64,000 nucleotides of DNA. It comes from an uncultured virus (IMG/VR IMGVR_UViG_3300005961_000014). Lineage: Duplodnaviria > Heunggongvirae > Uroviricota > Caudoviricetes. This document shows, in pieces, positions 8,514-56,165 of this stretch (position 1 is its first letter; the number at the start of each line of letters is the position of its first letter). The position numbers were made by a program, and so were the translations under genes. The notes under the pieces were generated by a model. That model made no database searches and was not told the DNA's origin. It saw only the letters and a list, made by a program, of their open reading frames with translations. The stretch is taken from IMG/VR virus record IMGVR_UViG_3300005961_000014, positions 1-64,000 of that record, one strand, 5' to 3'.

Positions 8514-9293
8514 ATGACAGTTATCACGTATGAAAGTAACATCCTGAGAAACTCAGGTAAAAAAGGCATTCTGAAACCGGATGCAGATGGGCGGTACGAA
8601 TTGGTGTTGGGAGCGTTCAATTACGCCAACAACCACAAGGACTTCTACCCACTGGGTCCGGTTAAAGATATGTTTGAAAGCTCATCCCCGTTTCAACGAC
8701 GCATTGCCGCCAACGCATTGCGGGGCGAATACGGGCACCCTAAGCGCGATAGCGTTCGCACGGAGAATGATTTCATTCGCCGGGTTATGGAAATCCGTGA
8801 AACCCAAGTCTGCTGTTACTTCAACCGGATTCAGTTGAATGAACAAGACCGTGTGGCTATGAACGGAGAACGCGAAGTCGTCGTTACAGGGTTGGTGAAA
8901 CCCTCGGGTCCGTTTGGAACTTATCTGGAAGAAAGTCTGAAAGACCCTAACCAGAATGCGTCGTTCTCGGTGCGTACACTGACCAACGATGTACCCGGAC
9001 CACAGGGTGGGATGATCAAGACAGTACGGATGCTGGTAACGTGGGACTATGTCAACGAGCCCGGTATTGCGCTGGCGCACAAGTACAACTCCCCGAGTCT
9101 GGAGTCCATTGATGGTCACAGTTTCGATCTCAATACCCTGATGACGGCTGCTGAGCAAGTACGCAGCGGTCGGTTCGGTGTCGGGATGGAAAGCGATGAT
9201 CGTGATCGTCTCTATGAGGCAGTGCGACTGTTCCGTGAAAAGACGACTGCTCCGGCGTCACGCATCTATCTCCCCCCATCCGCCAAATGGTAA
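8514..9293 (+). CDS. Prohead (head maturation) protease, phiKZ gp175-like
   Basis: LRGEYGHP (His), ASFSVR (Ser), TWDYVNEPG motifs; SPSLE|S autocleavage-type site near the C-terminus. Confidence 0.85.
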   Translation: MTVITYESNILRNSGKKGILKPDADGRYELVLGAFNYANNHKDFYPLGPVKDMFESSSPFQRRIAANALRGEYGHPKRDSVRTENDFIRRVMEIRETQVCCYFNRIQLNEQDRVAMNGEREVVVTGLVKPSGPFGTYLEESLKDPNQNASFSVRTLTNDVPGPQGGMIKTVRMLVTWDYVNEPGIALAHKYNSPSLESIDGHSFDLNTLMTAAEQVRSGRFGVGMESDDRDRLYEAVRLFREKTTAPASRIYLPPSAKW

Positions 9294-9961: not shown

Positions 9962-10453
9962 ATGACAGACATGAACGCGGTTTATGCCTTTAAGGGGGCT
10001 CTGGCGCAGTTTAAACAGGTATTGCAGGAGACGGGTGCATCCGCTGCCGTAGAACACCGCTTTGGTCCCACTGACGAGAACCCTGGAGGAACCAGTATTC
10101 GGGACATCCTGACTGATTCCGATCCCAACTACTCGTTGGAGCAAAGGAAGCTTTACGTCGTATCCCTTGTTGCTAAGCAATTAGAAACAACGGGTCATGA
10201 AATGGCAGAAGCTGCAAATGTGCTGCAATCCGCGCATGATCGTAGCGATAAGGTCTTTCGCTCCCAGGCGGCGGCTTTTGCGGCACTGGATAGTAACTAC
10301 CAAAGACTGAAGACCGACGTGAAAAACCTTGGATCAGCTTTCGAGGTAGACTTCACGGAATACGCTTTGGCACGCGGGTTTGCAATCCCTAACGAATTGC
10401 TGGATCTGATCATGCGTTTCCTGGATGACGAAGTAGGGAAGATCGTAACATGA
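9962..10453 (+). CDS. Hypothetical coiled-coil protein
   Basis: GGAGAG RBS before ATG 9962. Confidence 0.65.
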   Translation: MTDMNAVYAFKGALAQFKQVLQETGASAAVEHRFGPTDENPGGTSIRDILTDSDPNYSLEQRKLYVVSLVAKQLETTGHEMAEAANVLQSAHDRSDKVFRSQAAAFAALDSNYQRLKTDVKNLGSAFEVDFTEYALARGFAIPNELLDLIMRFLDDEVGKIVT

Positions 10454-10887
10454 AAACGAAACGTGCGTTTATCATCGATGCCGTAATCCGGTATATCAGC
10501 GAAGGGGGTCAGACGCCATACGTGGTTGTTGACGCGGGTCATCCGGATGTCATAGTTCCGGATGAATATGTCCAGAATGGCTTCATTACCCTGAACATAT
10601 CGCCGCGGTCCGTTCACAACTATGAATTAGGAGATGATGGATTACGATTTAGCGCGCGTTTCAACCGAGTATCGCGTTTCATTTCGGTGCCTTTGAGTGC
10701 TATCTGCTCCATTTTCCCGAAGGAAGACATTCGGGATAGCATTGTTTTCGTGAAAATCGAAGACACGCATTTTAGCGGCACATTCACGGACGAGTTTGAA
10801 CAACCAGCGGTGCAAGAAATTGCGCCCCCTGTAGTAAGAACCAAACCTACGTTGTCAATTGTGAAGGTGGAGAAACCTCATGAATAA
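10450..10887 (+). CDS. sspB: Stringent starvation protein B (ClpXP adaptor) homologue
   Basis: TPYVVVDA..PDVIVP.EYVQNG.I.LNISP..V, FSARF, VPL.AI; C-terminal KPTLSIVK resembles the ClpX-binding RPALRVVK tail. Confidence 0.85.
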   Translation: MKTKRAFIIDAVIRYISEGGQTPYVVVDAGHPDVIVPDEYVQNGFITLNISPRSVHNYELGDDGLRFSARFNRVSRFISVPLSAICSIFPKEDIRDSIVFVKIEDTHFSGTFTDEFEQPAVQEIAPPVVRTKPTLSIVKVEKPHE

Positions 10888-13801: not shown

Positions 13802-13842
13802 AACGAGGAGGCTTAGGCCTCCTCGTATGCCTTCATTATTTT

Positions 13843-13864
13843 TTACATACACACTACTGATGTG
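13843..13864 (+). promoter_or_regulatory. Putative phage early promoter motif
   Basis: TTACATACACACTACTGATGTG following a terminator. Confidence 0.5.
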
Positions 13865-16454: not shown

Positions 16455-16514
16455 GCAACGTAGTAAGGAAAGGGAGCAATCCCTTTTCTTTTTTGTCTCT
16501 AAATGCAGTTTTTT

Positions 16515-16537
16515 TCAGATACATATCACTTAGGTAG
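16515..16537 (+). promoter_or_regulatory. Putative phage early promoter
   Basis: TCAGATACATATCACTTAGGTAG after a T-tract; near-identical copies at 35621 and 51141. Confidence 0.6.
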
Positions 16538-20294: not shown

Positions 20295-20405
20295 GGGAGC
20301 ATGTCTCCATAGCGTTGCGGATTCTATGTACGATGTGTGGGTGGACACACATCATAATGTTAACTTCTACCGCCATTCATGCGGACAAACAGAGAGTGTG
20401 CAGTT

Positions 20406-21383
20406 ATGATCATCAACCCCTTCGATACTATTCCGTGTTTGCATTATGTCATTCAGCCCACGGTGAAGGCGCTGCGGGAAACCCGTCTAACCTCTCAGGA
20501 TCAGATATTCCCAGTGAATAGCCCGGTGGATGGAAAACCCATGCCGGGAGTTTACGGTTTGGTACATGGAGATTCTGGTATTAAACCTTTTGCGCACCCC
20601 ATTGTGGTGATGCGTCCGTCCCGCGATCGCCCGGGGTATCCGGAGGCGGATGGGATTTATCTGGACTTGCGGGCGTGCACGACCCCGCTGGGTGAAGGAA
20701 TGGGGTACCGAATTGGCGGGAGTATCGAGCACCAAATGTGGGCTTGGCGTGCTATCCTGATTCACAAATCGCTGCGCTCCGACACCCCGGGGTCGGACAT
20801 CTTAGGTCTGGGTATCTGGCCTATGACTATTTACATGCGCTGGATCAGTCAAGCGCTGACGCGCCGTTTGGCCTTACCGCCCGAAGTCCAGATGCGAGTC
20901 GCGATTTTGGTAGGGTACTTTTATTTCTGCATGGCGCTTGACACTCAAATCATGTCAAGCGATCCGTTGTCAGAACGCGACCTGTTGCGCGCATCGACCT
21001 TGATCAGTCGCGCCGGCAATTTCTCAGTGAATGATATCGTATCAGTGATTGGGGATTTGCCGCGCGCCAACAATACGGAAGATCTGGTAAATCTGTTGGT
21101 AAACCACACGCAAAGCTTGCGTTTTGAAGCAGACCGCTTTAATCTCCCTGTGTTGTATGCGGCTATTGAAGGCAGTTGGCTGAGAGGGATTCCGGGTGAA
21201 GTTGTGCGGGTGGCTATGGAACATTTGCCGACGTGGATGACGCTGGTGCTGCTGGCCACCAAGGAACGCGGTGTGAACAAAACGGGCATTGGCGATATTG
21301 CTCAACAGCTGATGCGTAGTCAGGGTGATGAATCTAAACACTTTACCACTCGGTTGTATGATCTGGCTACAGGTAGCTGGTAA
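20406..21383 (+). CDS. Virion structural protein (gp28-like)
   Basis: Divergent from the sheath; synteny. Confidence 0.55.
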   Translation: MIINPFDTIPCLHYVIQPTVKALRETRLTSQDQIFPVNSPVDGKPMPGVYGLVHGDSGIKPFAHPIVVMRPSRDRPGYPEADGIYLDLRACTTPLGEGMGYRIGGSIEHQMWAWRAILIHKSLRSDTPGSDILGLGIWPMTIYMRWISQALTRRLALPPEVQMRVAILVGYFYFCMALDTQIMSSDPLSERDLLRASTLISRAGNFSVNDIVSVIGDLPRANNTEDLVNLLVNHTQSLRFEADRFNLPVLYAAIEGSWLRGIPGEVVRVAMEHLPTWMTLVLLATKERGVNKTGIGDIAQQLMRSQGDESKHFTTRLYDLATGSW

Positions 21384-35615: not shown

Positions 35616-35620
35616 ACGTA

Positions 35621-35643
35621 TCCAGATACATATCACCTAGTTG
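35621..35643 (+). promoter_or_regulatory. Putative phage early promoter
   Basis: CCAGATACATATCACCTAGTTG. Confidence 0.6.
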
Positions 35644-39206: not shown

Positions 39207-42200
39207 ATGAACCAACTGCAGCTCCAGGAAGTCAGCATCGAAGTTTTCATCGAGAAGTACGCCAAAAATGGCGAAGTTACACTGGATCAGAATCGGCGGC
39301 GTGTAGCCAAAGCGCTGGCCTCTGTCGAGAACGAAAATGTTCGCGAGGACTACGAAGAGCGCTTCTACTACGCTCTGGATAGTGGCTTCATTCCTGCCGG
39401 TCGTATCTCTTCGGCAGCCGGTACGAATATCCAAGCCACATTGATCAACTGCTTCGTCCAACCAATCGGTGACGCCATGCGCGGAATGGCAAAGGACGGG
39501 CGCCCGAGTATCATGAAAGCACTGGAGGAAGCAGCCGAAACCCTGCGTCGCGGCGGCGGGGTCGGTTACAACTTTTCGCATTTGCGACCCTGCGGTGGCT
39601 TTGTTTCGGCCACTAACTCTCGCTCTTCGGGACCCGTCAGTTTCATGCGCGTCTTTGACAAGACCTGTGAGACCGTTGAGTCAGCAGGGGCGCGCCGTGG
39701 TGCCCAGATGGGTGTACTCAACTGTGATCATCCGGACATCGAAGAGTTCATTCATGCCAAGGATACGGGTGATCTGAAGAACTTCAACATCTCGATTGCC
39801 GTGACTGATGCTTTCATGGAAGCTGTCGAAAAAGATGCCGACTTCCAACTGGTTCACGTTGCTGAACCGCACCCTGAGGTCATTGCTGAACTCGGTGCTT
39901 TCCAACGTGAAGACGGTATGTGGGTTTATCGAACGGTCAAAGCGCGTGCCCTTTGGGATCAGGTCATGCAATCGACCTATGACCATGCCGAGCCCGGTAT
40001 CCTCTACGTCGACCGCATGAATCAGGAAAACAACCTGTACTATTGCGAAGACATTGAGGCCACCAACCCGTGCGTGACCGGCGATACGCGCTTGGCTACC
40101 CAATATGGTTTGGTTCGGATGGACGAGCTCTATCGGTCTCAAGAGACCCTCCAAGTAACCGTCGACAAGCGTGCGCTTGGAACTGCACCCCGTGGTGTTG
40201 ATATCCGCCCGGCAGTGCCGGTGTTCATGACCGCCGAACTTGCCGATGTTTACCAAATTACGACACAGGCCGGATATACGATCAAGGCCACGGAGTGGCA
40301 CGATTTCTACACCACCCGGGGTAAGGTTAAACTGCGCGATCTGACGCTTGATGACGTTTTGTTGGTGCAAAGCGGGCTTGGTCAGTTCGGGACAGAGGGA
40401 AGTTACGAACTCGGGATGCTGATGGGACTGATTGCGGGCGATGGTCACTTCACCGCTCGGGGTAATGGAGTTGCCGCCTGCGTCGGGCTTTGGGGCGAGA
40501 ATCGTGCAGTGGCTTCAGAATGCGTTGCCGCTGTCAACCGTTTGATTCGCGATGAACCGCGTTACCGACGTGTTGAAAGCGTTTCCATCGAAGGTCGTGA
40601 CATGGAGTCCATTCGTTCGGTGGTGCTTGCCAGTGTTCTTGATCGGGATTTCGGTTTCAACGCACGGACAAAACTGGTTGTACCTGAAGTAGTTTGGAAG
40701 GGGTCTGAGAGCTGTGTTCGGGGCTATCTGCACGGCCTGTTTCAAACGGACGGAACCATCCTCGTCAATCAAGGTAGCAATACCTGTTCCATCCGTCTCT
40801 CCTCTATCTCCGAGGACTATCTGGGTGAGATCCAGATGTTGCTGGCTAACTTCGGGGTTTTCTCCACGATAAGACTCGCGCGGGTTGCCGGTTTCCGTGA
40901 ACTGCCGGATGGGCGCGGAGGGTACGCCAGCTATCCTTGCAAGGATAGCTATGAACTGATTGTTGATGGTGAGTCGCGAAATGCATTCGCTCAACATATC
41001 GGTTTTCTGCTTCCCGAGATGAACGATAAACTTCTTGCCTGGATGGACGGGAAGAAACTGTATAAGACGCAGTCCTTTACGGCCGCTATCACCAGCATCG
41101 AGTATATCGGGGTAGAGGCAGTTTATGATACCACTCAGGCCGACAATAATACGGTCATTTTTAATGGGTTGGTAACTGGACAGTGTGCGGAACAACCGTT
41201 GCCGAATTATGGTTGCTGTGATTTGGGTTCCATCAATCTGACGAAGTTAATCATCGACCCCTTCACGGAACGCGCAACGTTTGACACCGAGAAGTTCATT
41301 GAGGTTGTTGGGCTTGGTGTACGTATGCTTGACAACGTGCTCGATCTTACCTACTGGCCGTTGGAACAGCAGAAGGAACAGTCTGACTCCAAACGCCGGA
41401 TTGGTCTGGGGTTCACCGGTCTTGGCGATGCTCTGGTCATGATGAGAATCAAGTACAACTCTCCGGAAGGCCTCCACTTCGCTGAACAGGTCTCTCGAAT
41501 CATGCGTGATGAGGCCTATCGTGCATCGGTGAAGCTGGCTATCGAGAAAGGGGTGTTCCCGATGTTCGATGCCGACAAGTATCTGGATAGCGGCTTCGCA
41601 CGTCGACTGCCGGAGCACATCCGCGACTATATCCGAGCGAACGGTATTCGCAACAGCCATCTGCTGTCGATCGCGCCGACTGGAACCATTTCCTTGTCCT
41701 TCGCCGACAACGCCTCCAATGGTATTGAGCCAGCATTTAGCTGGACCTACAATCGCAAGAAGCGAATGGATGATGGTAGCAGCAAGATTCTGCCGGTTGA
41801 AGACCATGCGTGGCGCCTGTATCGCCATCTGGGTGGGGATGTCAACAATTTGCCGAGCTACTTCGTCACTGCTCTTGAAATGTCGGCTGACGACCATATG
41901 CGGATGCTGGAAGTGGTGCAACCCTATATCGACACCAGCATCTCCAAGACGGTGAATGTTCCGGCGGACTACCCGTACGAAGAGTTCAAGGACCTGTACT
42001 ACAACGGCTGGAAAGCCGGGCTGAAAGGTTTGGCTACGTATCGCCCCAACAACATCCTGGGTGCGGTCTTGTCTGTTGCCGAGGAACCGAAAGTGGGAGA
42101 CGAATTTCCGGTGGGTGCGTTGAAGGATCTGGATCCCCTGACGGTGAAGTTCAAATCACGCCCGGCCGGCGACCTTAATGCGATTACTCGCAAAATGGTG

Positions 42201-42800
42201 TACTACACGCTGGAAGGCGAGAAGAAGATCTATCTCTCGGTCTCGTTCATGGTTGTAGATGGTGTTCACAATGGTGAAGCCATCGCGATCGAACGCCCGA
42301 TCGAGTTCTTTGTCCCTGCGGGTCAGCAAGACGATTCTCAGCAATGGGTTGCTGCTACCATGCGGCTCCTGTCTCAGATTTCAAGGTCTGGAGCGTCGGT
42401 AGCAGATGCTCTGGCGGATCTGCGTGAAGTTGTCTGGGACAAGGGGTTGGTTCGTTATGGTCAGATTGATCGGCCGGATGGAAGTAAGGGTACCCGCCAT
42501 CATGAATCGGAAGTCGCCGCCTTGGCTTACGCATTGCAAGAAATGCTGCAAGAGCGCGGTTTTCTGGATACCAACTTCCGGACTGTTGATCTGAAGATCA
42601 TGTCGTCCATGAAAGCACTCACCATGTTCAGCAACACCATGGCAGCGATCAAGAATGCCGTTCAATCTGACGCTGAGATCAAAGGGGGTCTTCAAGTAAT
42701 GGGTGGGGCCAAGTGCGGCGAGTGTGGCGAGTTTGCAGTCATCAAGGTGGACGGCTGTAAGAAATGTACTTCCTGTGGTGCTATCGGCGCATGTGGTTAA
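39207..42800 (+). CDS. nrdJ: Class II (B12-dependent) ribonucleotide reductase with intein and fused C-terminal TSCPD/Zn-ribbon region
   Basis: PAGRI, NCFV, GGGVG, RRGAQM, TNPC|AEQ, RRIGLG, IAPTGT, SISKTVN, KG..TYR; CGEC..CKKCTSCG. Confidence 0.92.
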   Translation: MNQLQLQEVSIEVFIEKYAKNGEVTLDQNRRRVAKALASVENENVREDYEERFYYALDSGFIPAGRISSAAGTNIQATLINCFVQPIGDAMRGMAKDGRPSIMKALEEAAETLRRGGGVGYNFSHLRPCGGFVSATNSRSSGPVSFMRVFDKTCETVESAGARRGAQMGVLNCDHPDIEEFIHAKDTGDLKNFNISIAVTDAFMEAVEKDADFQLVHVAEPHPEVIAELGAFQREDGMWVYRTVKARALWDQVMQSTYDHAEPGILYVDRMNQENNLYYCEDIEATNPCVTGDTRLATQYGLVRMDELYRSQETLQVTVDKRALGTAPRGVDIRPAVPVFMTAELADVYQITTQAGYTIKATEWHDFYTTRGKVKLRDLTLDDVLLVQSGLGQFGTEGSYELGMLMGLIAGDGHFTARGNGVAACVGLWGENRAVASECVAAVNRLIRDEPRYRRVESVSIEGRDMESIRSVVLASVLDRDFGFNARTKLVVPEVVWKGSESCVRGYLHGLFQTDGTILVNQGSNTCSIRLSSISEDYLGEIQMLLANFGVFSTIRLARVAGFRELPDGRGGYASYPCKDSYELIVDGESRNAFAQHIGFLLPEMNDKLLAWMDGKKLYKTQSFTAAITSIEYIGVEAVYDTTQADNNTVIFNGLVTGQCAEQPLPNYGCCDLGSINLTKLIIDPFTERATFDTEKFIEVVGLGVRMLDNVLDLTYWPLEQQKEQSDSKRRIGLGFTGLGDALVMMRIKYNSPEGLHFAEQVSRIMRDEAYRASVKLAIEKGVFPMFDADKYLDSGFARRLPEHIRDYIRANGIRNSHLLSIAPTGTISLSFADNASNGIEPAFSWTYNRKKRMDDGSSKILPVEDHAWRLYRHLGGDVNNLPSYFVTALEMSADDHMRMLEVVQPYIDTSISKTVNVPADYPYEEFKDLYYNGWKAGLKGLATYRPNNILGAVLSVAEEPKVGDEFPVGALKDLDPLTVKFKSRPAGDLNAITRKMVYYTLEGEKKIYLSVSFMVVDGVHNGEAIAIERPIEFFVPAGQQDDSQQWVAATMRLLSQISRSGASVADALADLREVVWDKGLVRYGQIDRPDGSKGTRHHESEVAALAYALQEMLQERGFLDTNFRTVDLKIMSSMKALTMFSNTMAAIKNAVQSDAEIKGGLQVMGGAKCGECGEFAVIKVDGCKKCTSCGAIGACG
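40071..41183 (+). mobile_element. Intein (371 aa) with LAGLIDADG homing endonuclease
   Basis: Starts CVTGDT, block B AT.WH, LMGLIAGDG and LHGLFQTDG, VYD block F, ends TGQ before extein Cys. Confidence 0.9.
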
Positions 42801-45065: not shown

Positions 45066-46133
45066 TTACCAGGACTCACCGATCAGTTCAACGATGTCAC
45101 CGGCGACCAATTCCGACACGCCACCGATGGCCAGACCACCCGTAAAGGTAACACGAGTCTTACTGGAGGCGCCGCCGGTGTAGTTGACCGTGAAGTCAAC
45201 CGTTTCTTGCTGGAAGCCACCGCCAGCCACCCAGAGCTGCACACCACCTTGGCTGAGCACCACTGTGGCATCGATGTAGCCGTTCAGGATATCCTGCGCG
45301 GTCAGCGTAACGGCCTGCTTGTAGGGCTTCTTCGCCATCACAGCGCCTGTGGACGAATCCCGGCGAGTGGTCTGGTCTTTCTCCAACGCAGCAGTGTCAA
45401 CCTTTACGCGCAACTGACCGTTGACGTTGCCGGGGTTAGTGGATTCCAAACCACCCAGGGAGGCCAGGTCGACAGACAGCGTGTTACCAGTCTTGGTAAC
45501 CATGTCGCCGCCAGACAGAGCTTGGACAGTCGGGTTCAGCGTGAAAGTCAGCACCGTGGTGTTGATCACAATGGGGTCAGCGTTGGCCACAATCGCTTCC
45601 CAGCCGGAGTACACCGTACCGGAAATGATCTTGAAGTAGGCGCCGGAAGTCACTTCCTTGCCCAGCGGGTCATCCACTTGGTCAAAGTCAGCGGCTCGGG
45701 TCAGGGTGTAGGTACCCCCCGAGATTGCCACATTGTAAACACCGTTCTGGATGCCGGTGGTTTGGTTACCCAGACCCAGACGCATCCCGTCGGTCAGGGT
45801 GCCGCTATCGACCACCAACGGGGTCGAGCCAGTCAAGGGGACGTTGACATCGGAGTAGAAGTTAACGGCGTCCTTGGGATCGGTCTTGCCGGCGACGAAG
45901 TTGGTGATGTATTCCACCGTCACCAGATCTTTCGGTGCAGACGGCATGGCCAGAGCACTGTTGAGCTGAGGGATGCGTTGGAACTCCAGAACGTTGGCGG
46001 TTGTGAGCTTCAGAATGTCCAGCTTGGTCGTTCCGTCCTGCGCAAAGCTGCGCAAGGTTTCGTTGTTCCGCAGCAGGATCTTGGCGCCGGTCACGGCGTC
46101 GTCTTGGATGAACTTCGTGGTGCGTTGAGTCAT
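45066..46133 (-). CDS. Putative head/tail fibre structural protein
   Basis: I.DDAVT.AKI, NQT...QNGVY...LTRA.DFD motif common in phage fibre proteins. Confidence 0.6.
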   Translation of the reverse strand: MTQRTTKFIQDDAVTGAKILLRNNETLRSFAQDGTTKLDILKLTTANVLEFQRIPQLNSALAMPSAPKDLVTVEYITNFVAGKTDPKDAVNFYSDVNVPLTGSTPLVVDSGTLTDGMRLGLGNQTTGIQNGVYNVAISGGTYTLTRAADFDQVDDPLGKEVTSGAYFKIISGTVYSGWEAIVANADPIVINTTVLTFTLNPTVQALSGGDMVTKTGNTLSVDLASLGGLESTNPGNVNGQLRVKVDTAALEKDQTTRRDSSTGAVMAKKPYKQAVTLTAQDILNGYIDATVVLSQGGVQLWVAGGGFQQETVDFTVNYTGGASSKTRVTFTGGLAIGGVSELVAGDIVELIGESW

Positions 46134-47228: not shown

Positions 47229-47714
47229 ATGTTTGCATACGTCAACCTCCGTCACGACAAACTCCCCACTATGCTATTTCGTGTCAAGCGCGGGAATCGC
47301 TATATCATCTATTGCCGTAATATCTTAGGACTGACAGCATGTGGTGTATCCGCTAGGGTAGCGAAACAGCGTTACAGAGAAGTGGTTCAGCGCGTAATAC
47401 TTATCTGTAAACAGGTGGGTGATCACATGCATCGACGCACGATGGATCTCTATCAGAAAATGGAAGCGGGAGATAACATACCCGTGGAGGCTGATGAAAC
47501 ACTGTACACCATCATGTCCTTAACCATGGCGAAGCGGCTGGATGCTCTCGCTGAAGGCCTGAAGGGTCTAGAGTCACCCCTATTCCAACCGGGTGAGAAA
47601 GAAACCCTGCTGGCTGAAATGCAGGCGTTGTTAGCACTGCATACTCGTGAAGACTTTGCGAGTAGTCAAGAACACGTCAACATCCGTCGTTCTAAAAAAA
47701 AAATGACGGCATAA
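47229..47714 (+). CDS. Hypothetical protein
   Basis: AGGAG RBS; promoter-like motif at 47181. Confidence 0.6.
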   Translation: MFAYVNLRHDKLPTMLFRVKRGNRYIIYCRNILGLTACGVSARVAKQRYREVVQRVILICKQVGDHMHRRTMDLYQKMEAGDNIPVEADETLYTIMSLTMAKRLDALAEGLKGLESPLFQPGEKETLLAEMQALLALHTREDFASSQEHVNIRRSKKKMTA

Positions 47715-48279: not shown

Positions 48280-49070
48280 TGATGATTCTCTGGGAGCCGT
48301 TTTAAGACCCCTCAAATACCTGGGTAGTACCTTAGTACTCCCGGGGGGTTTTATGCCGCTAGAATCTTCTCGTACGAAGTCCTAGCGGTATTTTCAAACT
48401 AGGTTTAGGGTGTTAGTTTTTTCTTTGGCTGAAAACGGGTTACGAAACCCATGCCTTCCTTAACGCCCGCGCTACTGAAGGATCGCGCGCGCCCTAAGAG
48501 TACTCACAAAACAAGTAGCGGCACTGGCCGTGTTTGAATAGATTCTGGGGGTGACGGCTGTCACATGCAGTTGCCCTGGTGGAAAAACTGCGTGTTTTTA
48601 ACGATTTCAGACTGAATCTGATCGAAATTCGAACCATCTGAATACCAGCCGGGGCTCAAACCCCGGCGGCAGAGTTCAGATTTGTGTTTTTGCCAGAGCA
48701 AAAACCTTGGTCAGATCGATTTTGATGCACTTCGGGGTCGTTGACCCCTCGTGATCAATTTAGATTATTTATAATCTTAACTTAGGGGATATTTTACGTT
48801 AGTAAAATATAAATCTAAAACAATAAATAATTTACTATACGTAATACTACGTAGTAGTATTACAAAGAAGCGGGCGCAGGCGTGATGTGCGCGCACGCGG
48901 TATAGAGTACGCGGATGCGCAGAATGCGCACACGCTAGTTGGAACCTGCGCGCGGTATAGAGTTTCGCGCACATACTGGAAGAAGACCTCTGGATCGTCA
49001 GTGAAAAATAACTGCTGATGTGATACTATGCGACGAGTCATTCGTGATTCCAAAACCAAACTGGGAGATC
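48280..49070. other. Long non-coding region with AT-rich core, palindromes and direct repeats (origin-like)
   Basis: No credible ORF; AT-rich 48755-48865; CGCGGTATAGAGT twice. Confidence 0.45.
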
Positions 49071-49074
49071 CAGC

Positions 49075-49575
49075 ATGCGTCACAGTCTGAACGAAATCTT
49101 GGCTGGTCAAGCACCGGCCAGCGCAAAGCGCAGTCATGGGGCGAAGCCTCTGCGGCTGGTACGTGTTTACGGAGTGGGTCTGGAATCTCTGTGTGACACG
49201 CTGACCGCTGGCGTGATGCCGATGGTGCGAGTTGAACCCATGGGAGTGCGGGTGAGTGCTGAAACCATGCAGGAAGACCAGCATCGGGAAACCGAAGCCG
49301 TGTTGAATCTGTTTGTGGTGCAGCCACGAGTAACGGGGTATGCTGGAGCTGTAGCGGCTGCTGCGGAAGCAGTGCGTAATCCGGAGTCTACGGGTATCCT
49401 CGTGATGGGGGATGTGCCGGGTGGGGAAGAACCGCTTTCGGATGCGGAACATCAGGACCTGAAAGAGCTCCATGAAGCCCTTGCTGAAACTGGCGGTCAG
49501 GTGTATACCACGCCGGACAACGTGATTGATTCCGTGAACGTGTCGGCGTTGACGCCGGAACCCGCGATTCCCTGA
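49075..49575 (+). CDS. Degenerate nucleoside deoxyribosyltransferase-like protein
   Basis: Aligns by eye with the N-domain of 51766-52923; GLE|S motif. Confidence 0.5.
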   Translation: MRHSLNEILAGQAPASAKRSHGAKPLRLVRVYGVGLESLCDTLTAGVMPMVRVEPMGVRVSAETMQEDQHRETEAVLNLFVVQPRVTGYAGAVAAAAEAVRNPESTGILVMGDVPGGEEPLSDAEHQDLKELHEALAETGGQVYTTPDNVIDSVNVSALTPEPAIP

Positions 49576-49710
49576 ATCCATGACGGTATAACCCTTTGAG
49601 CTAACCTCTGGCCGAAGACCCCCTCGGCCATATGGGGGTTATGCGCTTATTTTTTACACACACGGTATTAGTTATGAGACATTTCGTCTTACACGTACTT
49701 AGGAGTTACC

Positions 49711-50302: not shown

Positions 50303-50650
50303 ATGCGTATTTATACCGACCACAACGGGTTGATGGTCAATGCTTTTTCCGGTCCCGATGAACGTGCCGCGGGTCGCGATATGACGGGACATGTTTACAA
50401 AGTGATGCATGGTCAATCGGGTACCACCATCAGTTTTCAGCAAGGTCCGATTCCCGCTCATGGACTGAACGGTGTTACCAATGAAGCGCTGTTGGCGATT
50501 TTGATTCATCGCACCGAGCACCTGGATTCCCAGTTCCCCTGTGATGAAAACAAGCGGGCGATTGCGGACATGAAGAATGCATTGGTGAATCTGGAAGTCC
50601 GCACCGCACGCCGGATGGCGCGTGGGGTTGAAGGGAAAGAAGTCGTCTGA
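50303..50650 (+). CDS. Tad1-like anti-defence sponge protein
   Basis: H.Y, I.FQ.GP....G.NGVT.E.LL.I..R, F.C.EN..A....AL..L..R...R..RGV.G matches the Tad1 family pattern. Confidence 0.75.
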   Translation: MRIYTDHNGLMVNAFSGPDERAAGRDMTGHVYKVMHGQSGTTISFQQGPIPAHGLNGVTNEALLAILIHRTEHLDSQFPCDENKRAIADMKNALVNLEVRTARRMARGVEGKEVV

Positions 50651-50672: not shown

Positions 50673-51107
50673 ATGTCAGAAATCGTTACGGCTGTCTGCC
50701 TGATTCCCATCCCAGATAGTCCTCTGTACTACCCTGAAGGATTTGAATCCCAACGTGATCTGTACGGCGCTACTGTGGACGACATTGTCAGAACCTTGTT
50801 TCAGGACTTAGCATGCGATAGACCTGATAGCAGTTCACGCGAACAAGCCTATGCGGATTTTCTGAACCATCTCAAGATGCTCTACAGTGAACCCGATGAG
50901 GACTCGGGCGGTTTTATCGTTCAAGCGGCTGAAACGGTACTGCAACTCAAGCTGCGGTATGGCAACATTTGGGACCAAGTCCAGAAAGACTTCTGTGCAA
51001 TCATTGGTGATATTGAGCGCACCATGAACGTAGTTTCAGTAGAGGGGTTTACGCGCCTCAGTGATGATACCTACCGGTTTACCTTGGGATACTTGATGCA
51101 GGCTTAG
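50673..51107 (+). CDS. Hypothetical acidic protein
   Basis: 144 aa ORF. Confidence 0.6.
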   Translation: MSEIVTAVCLIPIPDSPLYYPEGFESQRDLYGATVDDIVRTLFQDLACDRPDSSSREQAYADFLNHLKMLYSEPDEDSGGFIVQAAETVLQLKLRYGNIWDQVQKDFCAIIGDIERTMNVVSVEGFTRLSDDTYRFTLGYLMQA

Positions 51108-51140
51108 GCCTGCGTTGTATGCCGTTAAAGCCATTTTTTT

Positions 51141-51162
51141 TCAGATACATACTACCTAAGTG
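51141..51162 (+). promoter_or_regulatory. Putative phage early promoter
   Basis: TCAGATACATACTACCTAAGTG after a T-tract. Confidence 0.6.
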
Positions 51163-51192
51163 AATCTAATCAACTGTCCGTAGGAGGACAAA

Positions 51193-51708
51193 ATGGATAA
51201 CAACACTAAGCATGACATCGTTATTTCGGTGGTTCGTAATATCCCTAACCATGGGATGGATCGTGAACATTTCCGCGCAGCATTGATCAAGCGGTTTCCA
51301 AAAGCCTTTTGGATTGAGCCTGACGGTGTTGGATTTGGCTTCGATATCGAGCGTCTCACTGATGCCGATATTGCTCTGCTTGAAAGGACTCTTCTTCCAG
51401 CCAACATGTTGGTAGCACCACGTGGTTTCTGGAATGTCTCTCGCTTCTGGGACGCGCTCTGCCAAGAGCAACATCTCACTGCCAGCGAGGCTCGTGAAGA
51501 GCTTTCCCACATTGCTGGTATCTCAATGTCTGAGATCAATGACGTAGGGGTAGACCCTGTTACCGGCCTGGTTGAGATACACATCCGTGGGGGAGGAGTG
51601 TTTCAAACTTTCCTCGAAACACTCAAGGAGTTCTTGAGTCCGAAACATTACGAAGCCGTGGCCAATCGCTGGGTTAGCCACTATGGTCCGCTCTATAACT
51701 GGCTTTGA
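51193..51708 (+). CDS. Hypothetical protein
   Basis: AGGAGG RBS; terminator follows. Confidence 0.7.
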   Translation: MDNNTKHDIVISVVRNIPNHGMDREHFRAALIKRFPKAFWIEPDGVGFGFDIERLTDADIALLERTLLPANMLVAPRGFWNVSRFWDALCQEQHLTASEAREELSHIAGISMSEINDVGVDPVTGLVEIHIRGGGVFQTFLETLKEFLSPKHYEAVANRWVSHYGPLYNWL

Positions 51709-51765
51709 CTAGAACGGGGGATCTTATGATCCCCTTCTTTTTTTTTGCTTTACCTGAGGTGTAAC

Positions 51766-52923
51766 ATGCCGGGTACGTTTTCTGAGGACTATAGCTCCTC
51801 ATCGGTGAAAGTCTTTCTGGGTGGTACATGTAACAACAGTCAGTGGCGGGATCGGTTGAAGAAAGAACTGATCGTATCTGTTGGGTGGTTTGACCCAGTC
51901 GTGCCTGACTGGAAACCGGAAGACCAAGTTATCGAACGACAGGTCCGTGAATCTTCAGACTATACTCTCTATGTCATCTCACCGCTCATGACAGGAGTTT
52001 ACTCCATTGCTGAGGTTGTGGACGATAGTCACCGTAGACCCAATCAGACACTATTCACTTTGCTCGATAGTGAATTGGGCACAACTTGGACAACGGGGGA
52101 ACGTCGGTCACTTGACGCAGTTGCTGAAATGCTTAAGCGTAACGGAGCTATAGTGCTGGATAACCTTGCTCAGGTAGCTGACTTCTTAAACACCAAGGGA
52201 ATTGAGTTGGCAACAACTCCCTCTATGGAAGGTAAGAAGTGGTCCGACGATGTCACTAAGAAAGAGAAATGGCATCCTCCTGAAGACTTCTTTAAGAAAT
52301 CCGCTAGCAGTATTGCCAATGGATTGATTAAGGCGTCTAAGGATAAACGACAGGCGATCGCTCGGCTCCAGTTTTACATCAATCGCGCTGGCAAGAACTT
52401 GACCACGTCAGACAAAAAGAAACTAGATACTGCCAAACTGCTTATCCAGAAACACTACGATAAGCTGACCGCTAGTAAAGAAGACCGCACGGATAAGACC
52501 CTCACTGCTGTCATCATCCAAGGGAATCCGAAGTATATTCGAGGAAACCCGACGGCTAAGGCGTTCTATGAGTCAATTCGCAGGTATCTGGAGTCAGCGG
52601 GTTGCGAAGTATCCTTTGATCCGGGTGAGCCCTATACGCTGCCAAAAACAGCCGACATCTGGATAGGGCATAGTCGAGGTACTGACCGGCTACGCTTTGC
52701 GCCGAAGACTGTCACCGTGTTAGCCTTTGGATCATCGATAGATGGCGCGATTAACCATCCTGAGGACAACGCGGTAAAGAAGACTTGGAAAGGAGAGGCT
52801 CCTAACGCTTACCATTTCACGTTTACCGATGAAATGCGGTCAGCTATTGATAAAGTGATAGCCGGCACTCAACAACCCAGTGTGTCCCAAGAAGACATAC
52901 TCCCCCCCAGCGCTAAGTGGTAA
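51766..52923 (+). CDS. Three-domain putative head-cargo polyprotein (NDT-like + DUF3175-like + GxSxG hydrolase-like)
   Basis: KVFLGGTC...WR, FDPVV.DW, SIAE; KWS..V...FYINRAGKNL; GHSRG; linkers SME, SKE, SQE; ends LPPSAKW. Confidence 0.7.
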   Translation: MPGTFSEDYSSSSVKVFLGGTCNNSQWRDRLKKELIVSVGWFDPVVPDWKPEDQVIERQVRESSDYTLYVISPLMTGVYSIAEVVDDSHRRPNQTLFTLLDSELGTTWTTGERRSLDAVAEMLKRNGAIVLDNLAQVADFLNTKGIELATTPSMEGKKWSDDVTKKEKWHPPEDFFKKSASSIANGLIKASKDKRQAIARLQFYINRAGKNLTTSDKKKLDTAKLLIQKHYDKLTASKEDRTDKTLTAVIIQGNPKYIRGNPTAKAFYESIRRYLESAGCEVSFDPGEPYTLPKTADIWIGHSRGTDRLRFAPKTVTVLAFGSSIDGAINHPEDNAVKKTWKGEAPNAYHFTFTDEMRSAIDKVIAGTQQPSVSQEDILPPSAKW

Positions 52924-53017
52924 GACATAATTGCCCTCCCACTCATGGGAGGACTTATGTTGTTTTTAACTGATTCACTGGATTTTTTGAGAAACAGACT
53001 CTGCCACCGAGGACACT

Positions 53018-53545
53018 ATGAGCAGAATACCCAAGCTTTTTCGATTCCAACAAGACTTTCGCATCCCATCTGCTCACCTGAGTATCCAAGATATTCACGT
53101 GATACATCAAGCACTGATGGGGGGTAATAAAGATCTGGCTTTCCATTACGCAAGTGAAATAAGTACTCGGGGCATTAGTATGCTTTGCGGGGCTATTTAC
53201 CATGATCAAACTGAGATAGAGGTTGATCAGGACTATATCCAAGTTCGGCTGTTTGGTGTACTCTTTCCGGAACATACACAAGCCCTCGCACCCAAGTTAC
53301 TCGGAGACCGATTGTTTCCCACAATCCCCTTGATCCATCGACCAGATCCTGATACGGGTGAGTCGTCGGTTATCGGAGTTGCTAACCCCATTCTGCGATA
53401 TGTTAAACCACCGCCTGCTTTAGGGATTAATAAAAAATCTCGTGTCAAATACATTACCCTGACGACGTACTCGGATTATCTGAAACAGTTGGATATGAAG
53501 GAAGGACGTACGTCAACAACCGAAGCTCTCGACGGGAGACGTTAA
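53018..53545 (+). CDS. Hypothetical protein
   Basis: GAGGA RBS. Confidence 0.6.
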   Translation: MSRIPKLFRFQQDFRIPSAHLSIQDIHVIHQALMGGNKDLAFHYASEISTRGISMLCGAIYHDQTEIEVDQDYIQVRLFGVLFPEHTQALAPKLLGDRLFPTIPLIHRPDPDTGESSVIGVANPILRYVKPPPALGINKKSRVKYITLTTYSDYLKQLDMKEGRTSTTEALDGRR

Positions 53546-54040
53546 GTGAACATTGCTCTGATTGTTGCCATGAGTATGAATGGCTGTATTGGTCGCCAAG
53601 GTCAACTACCGTGGCGTATTCCCGGAGATTTGCGTTTCTTCAAAGAAAGCACGCTCCGTCACCCCGTGATCATGGGACGCAAAACGTTTGACTCAATCGG
53701 CAAACCTCTACCCGGTCGTTACAACATCATTATCTCACGCACACCGCGCGAGCCTGGCGCAGGTTACTGCTACGTCACAACGCTGACACAAGCCCTGCTG
53801 GAAGCCGAACCCCATCTGCCTGCTGATGGCACGGTGTTTATCATCGGAGGTGGGGAGATCTACAAGGAAGCGCTTCCGTTTGCTGATACAGTGTACATGA
53901 CCCATGTCCCGGAGATCGTGAAAGATGGGGACGCGTTCTTCCCAACGTTTACTGGAGAAGGCTGGGATCGTGAAACCGTCGAGTGTTTGGATGATCCCAA
54001 TCATGGAGTTATCCGTATCAGTCGGTATAACAAACGATAA
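53546..54040 (+). CDS. folA: Dihydrofolate reductase
   Basis: LIVAM..NG.IG..G.LPW, DL.FFK, IMGRKTFDS, PLPGR.N, IIGGGEIY, GDAFFP. Confidence 0.95.
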   Translation: MNIALIVAMSMNGCIGRQGQLPWRIPGDLRFFKESTLRHPVIMGRKTFDSIGKPLPGRYNIIISRTPREPGAGYCYVTTLTQALLEAEPHLPADGTVFIIGGGEIYKEALPFADTVYMTHVPEIVKDGDAFFPTFTGEGWDRETVECLDDPNHGVIRISRYNKR

Positions 54041-54093
54041 CCCCCACTGGTGTGAGATATTCCTATGAACCTCTCACACCACGGAACACCGCT

Positions 54094-54432
54094 ATGGGAA
54101 AAGTTCTGATCATGATTATCATATCGGCATTATCGCGGATATGGCAATACATTAACAAACCCCCTAAGATAGACGTCCCTCCGTTGGATGAAACTCTGCC
54201 AAATCTCTGTGTTGTTGAGAGTACGGACTATATCTTGGAAAAGGAAATCATTCCAGTTCCCAACGAGGGGACGGATGCGTACTTGATCTACCTGGACATG
54301 CCAACAATCTGCCGTTCTTCACGAATCCAGTTCGGAACACGGGGTGGGATTTACTACGAGTGGGTCAATGGAAAGTGGGTAGAACTACCCGGTGTTATTG
54401 GGGTTCTCTACAAGCAACCAACCAAGAAATGA
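54094..54432 (+). CDS. Hypothetical membrane-anchored protein
   Basis: Hydrophobic N-terminus. Confidence 0.5.
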   Translation: MGKVLIMIIISALSRIWQYINKPPKIDVPPLDETLPNLCVVESTDYILEKEIIPVPNEGTDAYLIYLDMPTICRSSRIQFGTRGGIYYEWVNGKWVELPGVIGVLYKQPTKK

Positions 54433-54758: not shown

Positions 54759-56165
54759 TTAGGCAGCTGCCGGCTCTTCCTTCTTCGGCTCTTCGGCTTT
54801 CTCACCGCCACCGGCTGCCTTCAGACAGAGGTCGCCATATGCCAGATAGGCCTTGGCAGTCTTCTGAACATAGTTGACAACCATGTAGTCAGCAGACACC
54901 AGTGCAGACCAAGCAGTACCGAAGGCACGAGCAAAGTTGCTGCGTTCCTGAGCGATACGCGCTTTGTCACCTTCGTTATTACCGGTCGCTTCTTTAGCAG
55001 AGCTTTCCAGTTGCTTGATCACGAGGCCACGCAGATGCTCACGCTGTGCGTAAGCCTTCTTGTAGCTACCGATCTTCTCGAAGATGCCGGCAGCAGCAGT
55101 TGCCAAAACCTTGACGTCTTTCGGAGCAATGGCTTCGCCTTCCAGCTTGCGATCAGCGCCGCTCAACAGATCCATGATGGTGAACTTGTACTTGCCAAAC
55201 ATTCTGGAGGCTTCACCCAGATCTTTCGGGGTTTCGCCAGAAGGTATGATAATGTACAGGCCGTTGTTGCCGGGAAGAATCTTCTTGCCGCGAGCCACAG
55301 TGGCACTCTCAGGGGCCCGGGAAGGATTGGTGATGACCACCATGCCATCCAGCGGTTTCAGGACGTTTTCGTATGCAGTGTTCAACTGCTTAACGCCTTC
55401 ACCGGCGGCACTGTTGGCAGCATCAATGTCAGTGGCCTTGAAAACCTTGTCACCGATCGCTCCCATATCGGCAGCAATAAGAGCGCTGGAACCCAATGCG
55501 GCCATCAGACTGGCCACGCTTGCGGTACCAGCCACAACAGTGGCCTTGTTCAGCTTGCCGTTGATTTCAAGGGTTTCCAGCAAACCTGTGTTGGATTCCT
55601 TGAAGTCAACTGTACCGGCGGCTTTACCGGCCATTTCATCAGCCTTCTTAGCGAGGGCGTTGGCGCGGGCTGTCAGCTTGGCGGAACCATCGAAGACGGA
55701 CTTGATCCAACCGGAGAAGGTATTCCACAGCTTCTTGAGCTTCTCGATCAGTGCACGACCCAGTTCCTTGATCTTGTCCAGAGCGCCTTCCATCGAAGCG
55801 ACAACCGCATCTTCAGGAGAGTTGATGGACTCAGTAGAAACGGTCAAGGTTGTGCCACCGAACCACTTCCGATTCACGGCGTTGATCGCCATGTTGGAGA
55901 AGACTATCGCGTCCTTGGTAGGCTTACCGCTCTTCAGCGCAGCTTCCAGACCCTTCACCACTTCACCCATGGTTTCAGTGTCGGCATCAATCGCTTCAAC
56001 ATCGTCAGCGTCGCCTTCGACTTCTTCACCTTGCTCTTCAGCGGCCAGGACGTCAGATTCAGGAGAGGATTCGCCAGCGATTTCTTCCAGTGACTCCGGC
56101 TCGTCAGCCGGAGCGTCTTCGACCAGGTCTTCAAGACCCAGGCGATAGAACAGTTTGTTGCTCAT
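54759..56165 (-). CDS. Internal head (ejection) protein with acidic propeptide
   Basis: Acidic N-region with GLE/SLE/STE/SME sites, then ASME|GALDKIKE...KLW...W pattern of phiKZ-like head-protein paralogues. Confidence 0.75.
   Translation of the reverse strand: MSNKLFYRLGLEDLVEDAPADEPESLEEIAGESSPESDVLAAEEQGEEVEGDADDVEAIDADTETMGEVVKGLEAALKSGKPTKDAIVFSNMAINAVNRKWFGGTTLTVSTESINSPEDAVVASMEGALDKIKELGRALIEKLKKLWNTFSGWIKSVFDGSAKLTARANALAKKADEMAGKAAGTVDFKESNTGLLETLEINGKLNKATVVAGTASVASLMAALGSSALIAADMGAIGDKVFKATDIDAANSAAGEGVKQLNTAYENVLKPLDGMVVITNPSRAPESATVARGKKILPGNNGLYIIIPSGETPKDLGEASRMFGKYKFTIMDLLSGADRKLEGEAIAPKDVKVLATAAAGIFEKIGSYKKAYAQREHLRGLVIKQLESSAKEATGNNEGDKARIAQERSNFARAFGTAWSALVSADYMVVNYVQKTAKAYLAYGDLCLKAAGGGEKAEEPKKEEPAAA

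Follow-up and report, generated by a model that had tools for sequence, protein, structure and literature searches.

The 64,000-nucleotide stretch analysed here (the window; positions 1 to 64,000 of the uncultured virus record IMGVR_UViG_3300005961_000014 in IMG/VR) encodes a three-domain protein, labelled P0001, that ends in the same seven residues, LPPSAKW, as the head maturation protease encoded in the same window, and that carries triplets of the type cut by such proteases in its linkers. These features suggest that P0001 may be recruited to the prohead. Gene content and the family matches of the predicted proteins identify the window as a fragment of a phiKZ-like jumbo phage, with split multisubunit RNA polymerase, phrog_3014 protease, tail sheath and terminase genes, together with genes for a phiKZ_IP internal head protein (54759-56165, −), ribonucleotide reductase (RNR), ThyA and DHFR. 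The parent viral record is 75 kb long and about 28% complete, and no collected phage has a tail sheath more than 34-37% identical to that of the window. The protein set of the window comprises 64 predicted proteins, and C-termini were listed for its 519 stop-to-stop frames of at least 50 aa. The open reading frame (ORF) of P0001 and the protease gene hold the following features:

51766..52923, + strand: P0001 ORF, three-domain protein of 385 aa (stop included; stop codon 52921-52923)
51805..52215, + strand: N domain, residues 14-150, nucleoside 2-deoxyribosyltransferase-like, Rossmann-like fold
52012-52014, + strand: presumed catalytic Glu83 in YSIAE
52222..52230, + strand: SME 153-155, at the start of linker 1
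52237..52464, + strand: DUF3175, residues 158-233, basic and helical (Pfam PF11373)
52474..52482, + strand: SKE 237-239, at the end of helix 214-241
52498..52875, + strand: C domain, residues 245-370, small alpha/beta domain (phrog_30942)
52885..52893, + strand: SQE 374-376, preceded by Val, in the disordered C-terminal stretch
52900..52920, + strand: C-terminal LPPSAKW of P0001, residues 379-385, the same as the C-terminus of the protease
8514..9293, + strand: head maturation protease P0222, 259 aa (phrog_3014, E 2.4e-69)
9270..9290, + strand: C-terminal LPPSAKW of the protease (ctc ccc cca tcc gcc aaa tgg)

The AlphaFold2 model of P0001, built on a 38-row alignment, has a mean predicted local distance difference test (pLDDT) score of 86.4 and contains three confident domains at about residues 1-150, 168-241 and 245-370; pLDDT falls below 50 at residues 155-167, 240-242 and 373-385. 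An earlier note on this DNA, made without database searches, had read the protein as three unrelated domains, and this is borne out by the Pfam and PHROG matches, by the model and by the occurrence of each domain separately elsewhere; the motifs that it quoted (KVFLGGTC, FDPVVPDW, SIAE, FYINRAGKNL and GHSRG) are all present in P0001.

The N domain has the Rossmann-like fold of PF15891. A Foldseek comparison with chains of 4mcj, the solved structure of a putative nucleoside deoxyribosyltransferase, gives a probability of 1.00, a target TM score of 0.62-0.65 and a root-mean-square deviation (rmsd) of 3.8-4.6 over 154-156 columns. The Pfam profile Nuc_deoxyri_tr2 (PF15891) matches residues 14-63 at 27.0 bits, under its curated cut-off of 30, and the 99%-identical relative P0002 carries PF15891 in the precomputed Pfam list. 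A hidden Markov model (HMM) of the N domain is matched by 158 of the 217 collected proteins. Glu83 (TGVYSIAEV), which we take to be the catalytic residue by analogy with the active sites of the nucleoside deoxyribosyltransferases and Rcl, is invariant across the four full-length proteins of this type.

The DUF3175 domain is matched by PF11373 at 34.1 bits (cut-off 27) over the whole profile, positions 1-86 of 86, and is helical in the model, with a long helix at residues 214-241. By tblastn, DUF3175 also occurs in Xanthomonas, Burkholderia and Ralstonia jumbo phages; in BcepSauron its gene (gp253) is located between the genes for the portal and the tail tube initiator, and in RSL1 it is close to a tail fibre gene. 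The stand-alone DUF3175 proteins of BcepSauron (gp253, L009) and BCSR5 (L008), of 89-96 aa, begin with similar short peptides that end in Glu right before the conserved KWS (MEINAATRLVATE-KWS and MKIEAAARLRASSE..GE-KWS, respectively) and that look like short removable targeting peptides. With the window protease as query, no homologue was found in BcepSauron, BCSR5, RSL1 or PhiXhv-15, and the Pfam Peptidase_S77 profile has no match in those phages, nor in the control genomes. Full-text literature searches returned no paper on DUF3175 and none on RSL1 ORF186.

The C domain is matched by phrog_30942 (P0001 residues 247-367 against profile positions 2-127 of 156, E 2.5e-21) and, when folded alone, reaches a pLDDT of 93.4. 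In the AlphaFold2 model G-H-S303-R-G follows strand 298-302 and opens helix 303-311, as in a nucleophile elbow. Among 20 aligned sequences H302, S303, G305, R308, H331 and H350 are invariant and D334 is kept in at least 90%; the first position of the elbow, Gly in P0001, is Ala in 201phi2-1. D334 and H350 stand in Ser-Asp-His order along the sequence, and S303, Asp334 and His350 are a possible Ser-Asp-His triad of a serine hydrolase. Structural comparison with VIA-align places 2qjw first among the hydrolases (Z 9.3, rmsd 3.5, 115 aligned), with cutinases 4oyl (Z 9.2, rmsd 2.8, 119 aligned) and 4psc (Z 8.9, rmsd 2.8, 120 aligned) close by; that list also contains periplasmic binding proteins and receiver domains, with Z 8.5-9.3, so these scores do not set the hydrolases apart. 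Foldseek gives no match for the C domain at E 0.001 or better, the ESM Atlas gives sub-threshold leads only, and a sequence search of PDB chains yields only a chance-level WD-repeat match.

Stand-alone small genes for the C domain are found in 201phi2-1 (gp429), PhiPA3 (gp373), Psa21 (gp236), D6 and FLC9. The domain is also part of fused multisubunit RNA polymerase proteins with Rpb2_6 and Rpb1 domains, where it is internal or N-terminal (P0145, 2123 aa; P0113, 512 aa). It is an unusually promiscuous domain, with fusions elsewhere to SNF2 helicase, 2H/Acb1-like phosphoesterase, GNAT, HicA and phage RNA polymerase. We also considered 201phi2-1 gp428 and gp429, which share a frame with one stop between them, as a split DUF3175 and C-domain pair, and set this aside since gp428, by eye, shows no DUF3175 motifs.

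The full-length arrangement is rare. Among 5.8 billion clustered proteins its only relatives are P0002 (99% identity), P0003 (75%) and P0004 (69%), and none of 40 phage records matched by tblastn covers 80% of P0001. A word-indexed protein search with residues 145-245 returned only the same three relatives and three bacterial-type DUF3175 proteins. The modules themselves are found stand-alone and in other fusions: by tblastn the N domain occurs in phiCD418, Lak phages and some Erwinia and Serratia jumbo phages, precomputed Pfam lists show it fused to NUDIX, dUTPase, dCMP deaminase and methyltransferase domains, and P0076 joins an N domain to DUF3175 and has no C domain. Locus searches gave one locus with alignment A1, seven with P0076, all of them N domain only, and none with P0077. 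P0001 thus joins three separately evolved modules in one polypeptide. Their chemistry would be that of a deoxyribosyltransferase- or hydrolase-like nucleotide N-glycosidase, a basic DUF3175 domain and a serine-hydrolase-like domain.

The C-termini of P0001 (..VSQEDILPPSAKW) and of the protease (..ASRIYLPPSAKW) are the only ones that end in PPSAKW among the 519 listed frames. The DNA pattern for PPSxxW followed by a stop has exactly two matches in the 75-kb record, and a reversed-pattern control has none. The tail of P0001 is encoded by ctc ccc ccc agc gct aag tgg, four of the seven codons differing from those of the protease and the serine being AGC instead of TCC. It is therefore the peptide LPPSAKW that has been conserved and is under selection, and the identity does not stem from recent copying of DNA. 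Two more proteins of the window end in Trp, the products of 20379-21383 (+; ..DLATGSW; phrog_3227) and 45066-46133 (−; ..ELIGESW), the latter weakly matching head decoration or virion structural families; a C-terminal Trp is found in four of the 64 predicted proteins, and these two extra cases lack the Pro of the protease motif.

The tail can be followed beyond the window. P0003 ends in LPPSAKW, P0004 in RPPSARW and P0076 in SASANW. A scan of viral contigs for LPPSAKW followed by a stop gave one real match, the protease of a 65.9-kb record (G001), which is 42% identical to the protease of the window, has a diverged propeptide and ends in ILPPSAKW. In the same record a gene beside DHFR encodes an N domain on its own, in a protein of 149 aa with 43% identity that ends in KLPPSQSW; these two genes account for exactly the two PPSxxW-stop matches in that record. 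No protease-type tail is present on the N-domain proteins of eight other viral contigs. The tail therefore appears to stay with the N-domain enzyme in each of three architectures (N alone, N with DUF3175, and N with DUF3175 and C), and to do so only in the phage group with a tail-bearing protease.

Such a tail is not confined to these enzymes. Four other genomes (G002, G003, G007 and G008) have, immediately downstream of the protease gene, a gene whose product ends in the tail of the protease, written in different codons (PPSARW in G002, G003 and G008; PPSAHW in G007); the only copy translated, that of the complete 243-kb record G003, is a phrog_5043 protein of 237 aa (L083:1504-2214, −). Among 42 protease homologues, Trp is the last residue in 33 and one of the last four in 40; P-x-[SYWF]-[AML]-x-W fits 30 of them and PPSA[KRD]W ten, and S/A/G-x-E occurs within the last 60 residues of 41. 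To judge from these counts, the tail motif is a feature of the protease family. In the protease of the window the C-terminal stretch is likewise preceded by candidate sites, at SLE195, AAE212 and GME224. The phiKZ-type prohead protease invoked in the earlier note is encoded here, and the specificity assumed for it agrees with the literature, in which the cleavage motif is given as S/A/G-X-E for phiKZ, S/A/G/T-X-E for 201phi2-1 and A-X-E for SPN3US (PMC5694885).

What a protease C-terminus might do is indicated by SPN3US. Its protease, gp245, removes its own 64-residue C-terminal propeptide (PMC10052503); without the last 26 of these residues the protein is reported to be active in vitro and not found in proheads, and the propeptide has been proposed as a prohead-targeting signal (PMC7411985).

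The three S-x-E triplets of P0001 lie in or next to all three low-confidence linkers of the model, at the coordinates and domain boundaries where they had been placed from the sequence. SME155, SKE239 and SQE376 are thus at or near residues with pLDDT below 50, where a protease would find them accessible: SME opens the linker 155-167, SKE ends the helix that precedes 240-242 and SQE lies within 373-385. SME is invariant in the four full-length proteins; in SKE the Ser and Glu are kept in all four (SKE, SKE, SKE and SQE); and VSQE is invariant as well, each triplet being kept among variable neighbouring residues. Across the wider relatives S/A/G-x-E occurs in the 15-aa flanks upstream of the C domain in only 4/32, downstream of the C domain in 8/42 and downstream of the N domain in 15/82. 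A small-x-E triplet precedes DUF3175 in P0076 (GME-G) and both DUF3175 repeats of P0077 (SLE-A and ALE-G); it is absent in PhiXhv-15, and the three bacterial-type DUF3175 proteins have none before KKWS.

The placement of the sites is more telling than their number. Four S/A/G-x-E sites fall in the 60 linker and tail residues and one in the 325 core residues, and when each linker is shuffled within itself the joint P is 0.017 for S/A/G-x-E and 0.002 for S-x-E; these statistics are post hoc, made after the pattern had been noticed, and are suggestive only. The internal head protein of the phiKZ_IP family (54759-56165, − strand, 468 aa) carries 21 S/A/G-x-E sites (4.5 per 100 aa; 13.7 expected from composition), crowded in an acidic N-terminal region of 126 residues that ends in ASME-G, with the same SME-G as P0001. 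No S/A/G-x-E lies before residue 145 of P0001, and its first N-domain strand begins at residue 14, which leaves no N-terminal propeptide.

The following features, in the neighbourhood of P0001 and elsewhere in the window, bear on its gene context:

49075-49575, + strand: N-domain paralogue, 166 aa (weak: HMM E 5.8e-5; BLASTP 24% identity, E 0.002)
50303-50650, + strand: Tad1 homologue, 115 aa, two genes upstream of P0001 (PDB 8kbb, E 3.3e-11)
51138..51155, + strand: promoter-like motif TTTTCAGATACATAYYAC, one copy, 5' of gene 51193-51708 (same strand as P0001)
51716..51735, + strand: hairpin resembling a terminator, with a T run behind it, in the gap between P0001 and the preceding gene
52935..52952, + strand: hairpin immediately after the P0001 stop
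13840-13857, 16512-16529, 35619-35636 and 51138-51155 (+) and 47394-47411 (−): copies of motif TTTTCAGATACATAYYAC, usually after a T run
10450-10887, + strand: SspB-like adaptor, 1.2 kb downstream of the protease gene (Pfam SspB, E 1.8e-16)

P0001 starts at ATG 51766, with gaggtg just 5' of it; the in-frame TTG at 51745 is less likely to be the start. Motif TTTTCAGATACATAYYAC has five matches in the window with at most three mismatches (0.07 expected), located upstream of small accessory genes, and weaker look-alikes were seen by eye before the genes at 50303, 39207, 47852 and 57105, which include RNR-type and Tad1-type genes. This motif may be an early promoter of the phage. The strong hairpin at 51716-51735 stands between it and the P0001 gene and holds TTATG in its loop, 42 nt 5' of the P0001 start codon. 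TATG is the core of phiKZ late promoters (PMC4666361); 5-mers like TTATG are present in 12 of the 64 upstream regions listed, so that the timing signal is ambiguous. The Tad1-like protein has a second match, to the C-terminal half of phiKZ gp184 (8y6v_I, E 1.8e-6), an inner-capsid vertex protein reported to be processed by gp175 (PMC11297242). Neither Tad1 nor Thoeris is mentioned in that paper; the gp184 match suggests that a Tad1-like fold does occur inside the phiKZ capsid.

The N-domain paralogue has Ala at the position of Glu83, and a longer antisense ORF (48847-49581, −) that overlaps it is probably spurious. A weak second copy of the N domain is likewise carried by G001. In the RNR large subunit (39207-42800, +; 1197 aa) family matches cover only residues 33-291 and 654-1193; the stretch of about 360 residues between them has no match and might be an insertion, e.g. 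an intein. A megablast search with 51000-54100 found no match among phage records, and an NCBIfam profile search found none for P0001 and five neighbours.

We propose, by analogy with SPN3US gp245, that LPPSAKW is a short C-terminal docking signal that would bring both the protease and P0001 into the assembling prohead. Once inside, the linker S-x-E triplets would be exposed to a protease that cuts after S/A/G-x-E. The minimum outcome would be loss of the tail behind SQE376; if SME155 and SKE239 were cut as well, three free modules would result, which might then be ejected with the DNA. Seven identical C-terminal residues are most simply explained by a docking partner common to both proteins, and the protease is known to work nowhere but in the prohead; we therefore consider loading of P0001 through the tail, with trimming in the prohead at least at SQE376, about as likely as not. 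The release of three free enzymes, their ejection and an anti-defence role are further steps, and each would be less probable.

The description of P0001 in the earlier note as a capsid-packaged cargo polyprotein is therefore upheld in part: the domains, the linker sites, the presence of the protease and above all the tail shared with it, an identity that the earlier note did not draw on, speak for it, while gene context, the N-terminal precedent for substrates and an at-chance number of sites do not. Several observations weigh against loading into the prohead. P0001 contains five S/A/G-x-E sites, and shuffled sequences contain 4.7 (P of five or more = 0.52); for S-x-E the figures are 3 and 1.8 (P 0.26), and the density of 1.30 S/A/G-x-E per 100 aa compares with 1.16 for the 64 window proteins, so that the number of sites is at chance. 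Of the 14 cleavage sites mapped in SPN3US, 13 serve to remove N-terminal propeptides, and about 80% of its head proteins are uncut (PMC10052503); as the N-terminus of P0001 is a folded enzyme, the first of these precedents counts against its being a substrate. The accessible text of PMC10052503, PMC5694885 and PMC7411985 reports no protein cut into several enzymes by a prohead protease. P0001 also lies in a same-strand block with the Tad1-like gene, the degenerate N-domain paralogue and DHFR, and this block looks like an accessory or early block and not a late structural one.

The tail and the C domain supply further points on the same side. In five genomes whose proteases bear the tail there is no homologue of P0001, so that co-variation of the two tails can be compared in only two phages; strictly, a shared tail shows a shared partner, not that this partner is the prohead. 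The C-domain proteins gp429, gp373 and gp236 are annotated only as hypothetical, and the label 'virion structural protein' was available to their annotators, being used in the Psa21 region and in the notes of the PhiPA3 record. The tails of these proteins (..SRRPGVR, ..NRPRPR and ..GRPRPRG in 201phi2-1, PhiPA3 and Psa21) are only loosely like those of the proteases (..IRKPNWLR, ..IPHYMRKR and ..RRPAYMR), and the tail of the FLC9 C-domain protein is unlike its protease tail altogether.

These points lead to the alternative that survives best, that P0001 is an ordinary cytoplasmic accessory enzyme which works as an intact chain. In that case the S-x-E triplets would be there by chance, the tail would bind a partner outside the prohead or serve as a degradation or regulatory tag, and the modules would attack one bond after another in a single nucleotide-derived substrate or merely travel together. 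The site count at chance, the Tad1-like, DHFR, ThyA and RNR neighbourhood with its early-looking promoter motif and the C-domain homologues devoid of a virion-protein label all fit with this, as do the fusions of the N domain to NUDIX, dUTPase, dCMP deaminase and methyltransferase domains and those of the C domain to 2H/Acb1-like, GNAT, SNF2 and HicA domains; the SspB-like adaptor encoded near the protease is a possible alternative reader of the shared tail. Such an enzyme would not be expected to share its tail, alone in the window, with a prohead protease that works inside the prohead, nor would the tail be expected to follow the N domain through three architectures or to recur on the neighbour of the protease in four other genomes, and the SPN3US data link the C-terminal residues of a protease to prohead incorporation. 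We know of no degron resembling ..SAKW, which also counts against this alternative; we consider it less likely than not.

The complete scheme of the earlier note, in which P0001 is loaded, cut at all three S-x-E sites and ejected with the DNA as separate units that disarm nucleotide-based immunity of the Thoeris or CBASS type, goes further than the minimum that we propose. It draws on all of the evidence for capsid targeting, on the Tad1 homologue two genes upstream and the resemblance of that homologue to phiKZ gp184, an inner-capsid protein reported as cut by gp175 (PMC11297242), and on the prediction of Iyer et al. 2017 that injected multi-domain polyvalent proteins are processed into units (PMC5512222). 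Since SKE stands at the end of a predicted helix and the literature, as far as it is covered by the papers cited here, reports no prohead protease that releases several functional enzymes from one chain, we consider this scheme unlikely. Equally unlikely in our estimate is that P0001, loaded through its tail, stays in one piece apart from removal of the tail and is a single three-domain ejection protein or internal head protein with DUF3175 contacting DNA: the roughly 80% of SPN3US head proteins that are uncut (PMC10052503), the DUF3175 genes in structural regions of BcepSauron and RSL1 and the N4 vRNAP-type polyvalent proteins, said to be packaged unprocessed (PMC5512222), would suit it, whereas conservation of SME and S[KQ]E in linkers with variable flanks, the small-x-E that precedes DUF3175 in P0076 and each DUF3175 repeat in P0077, and the presence of only one site in the domain cores argue for cleavage.

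Our proposal that the tail docks P0001 in the prohead can be widened to phiKZ-like jumbo phages in general. The last residues of the protease (approximately P-x-[SYWF]-[AML]-x-W) would then be a portable C-terminal cargo-loading peptide, with cargo clipped at S/A/G-x-E linkers and fusion serving to bring several free enzymes into the next host; this generalisation we regard as rather doubtful. If true, it would describe a capsid cargo system with a logic comparable to that of encapsulin loading peptides and usable for packaging chosen proteins. Little is known of the way in which giant phages select the non-structural proteins, dozens of them, that are packed in their heads and ejected into the host. 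The seven-residue tag is a concrete candidate for an address label, from which cargo proteins could be listed from sequence alone; were it one, it would provide a means of loading selected proteins into phage capsids, and it would mean that nucleotide-directed enzymes are delivered ready-made, ahead of any phage gene expression.

Capsid cargo processed by a prohead protease is of a known kind; what is new here is a candidate C-terminal address tag common to the protease and an unrelated enzyme, and the multi-enzyme architecture. Judged from titles and the beginnings of abstracts, no paper was found on a C-terminal tag common to protease and cargo. At the level of single domains, the fold and motifs of the N domain match the PF15891 superfamily and 4mcj; the Pfam score of P0001 is below the curated cut-off, and no member with a known substrate was found. 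The stand-alone C-domain proteins gp429, gp373 and gp236 are 36-40% identical to the C domain of P0001 and keep HSRG, H-P-x-D and the His; they differ in being single-domain proteins of 146-156 aa with Arg/Pro-rich tails in place of LPPSAKW.

Polyvalent proteins (PMC5512222) resemble P0001 in that unrelated enzymatic modules are strung in one phage protein, and P0001 has at least two unrelated effector-type domains. Their predicted route is delivery together with the DNA, in some cases with processing into units, and those of the N4 vRNAP type are described as packaged unprocessed (PMC5512222). P0001 differs in lacking a peptidase domain of its own (none was found by Pfam, PHROG and NCBIfam profile searches) and portal or MuF neighbours, its neighbours being the Tad1-like gene, genes of unknown function and DHFR; its processing would be by the general prohead protease. 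The terms deoxyribosyltransferase, DUF3175, KTSC, HicA, esterase and alpha/beta-hydrolase do not occur in the accessible text of PMC5512222.

In T4, a short peptide likewise directs cargo (Alt and IPI-III) into the prohead; gp21, which cuts after Glu, removes this peptide, and the cargo is ejected with the DNA (PMC7411985). The T4 signal is N-terminal, of 10-20 residues, and sits on single-function proteins, whereas the candidate signal of P0001 is C-terminal and serves three modules; the first 13 residues of P0001 (MPGTFSEDYSSSS) hold FSE, with Phe at P3, unlike a T4-type targeting peptide. A further close parallel is the propeptide of the phiKZ-type proteases themselves (SPN3US gp245 and phiKZ gp175), a C-terminal stretch after S/A/G-x-E sites, which is found in P0001 as well. 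In gp245 it is reported to be self-removed and needed for prohead incorporation; the protease of the window has the same layout, and P0001 copies its last seven residues. For gp245 the signal is described for the protease only and as a 64-residue region, not a heptapeptide, whereas here the last seven residues are carried by an unrelated enzyme.

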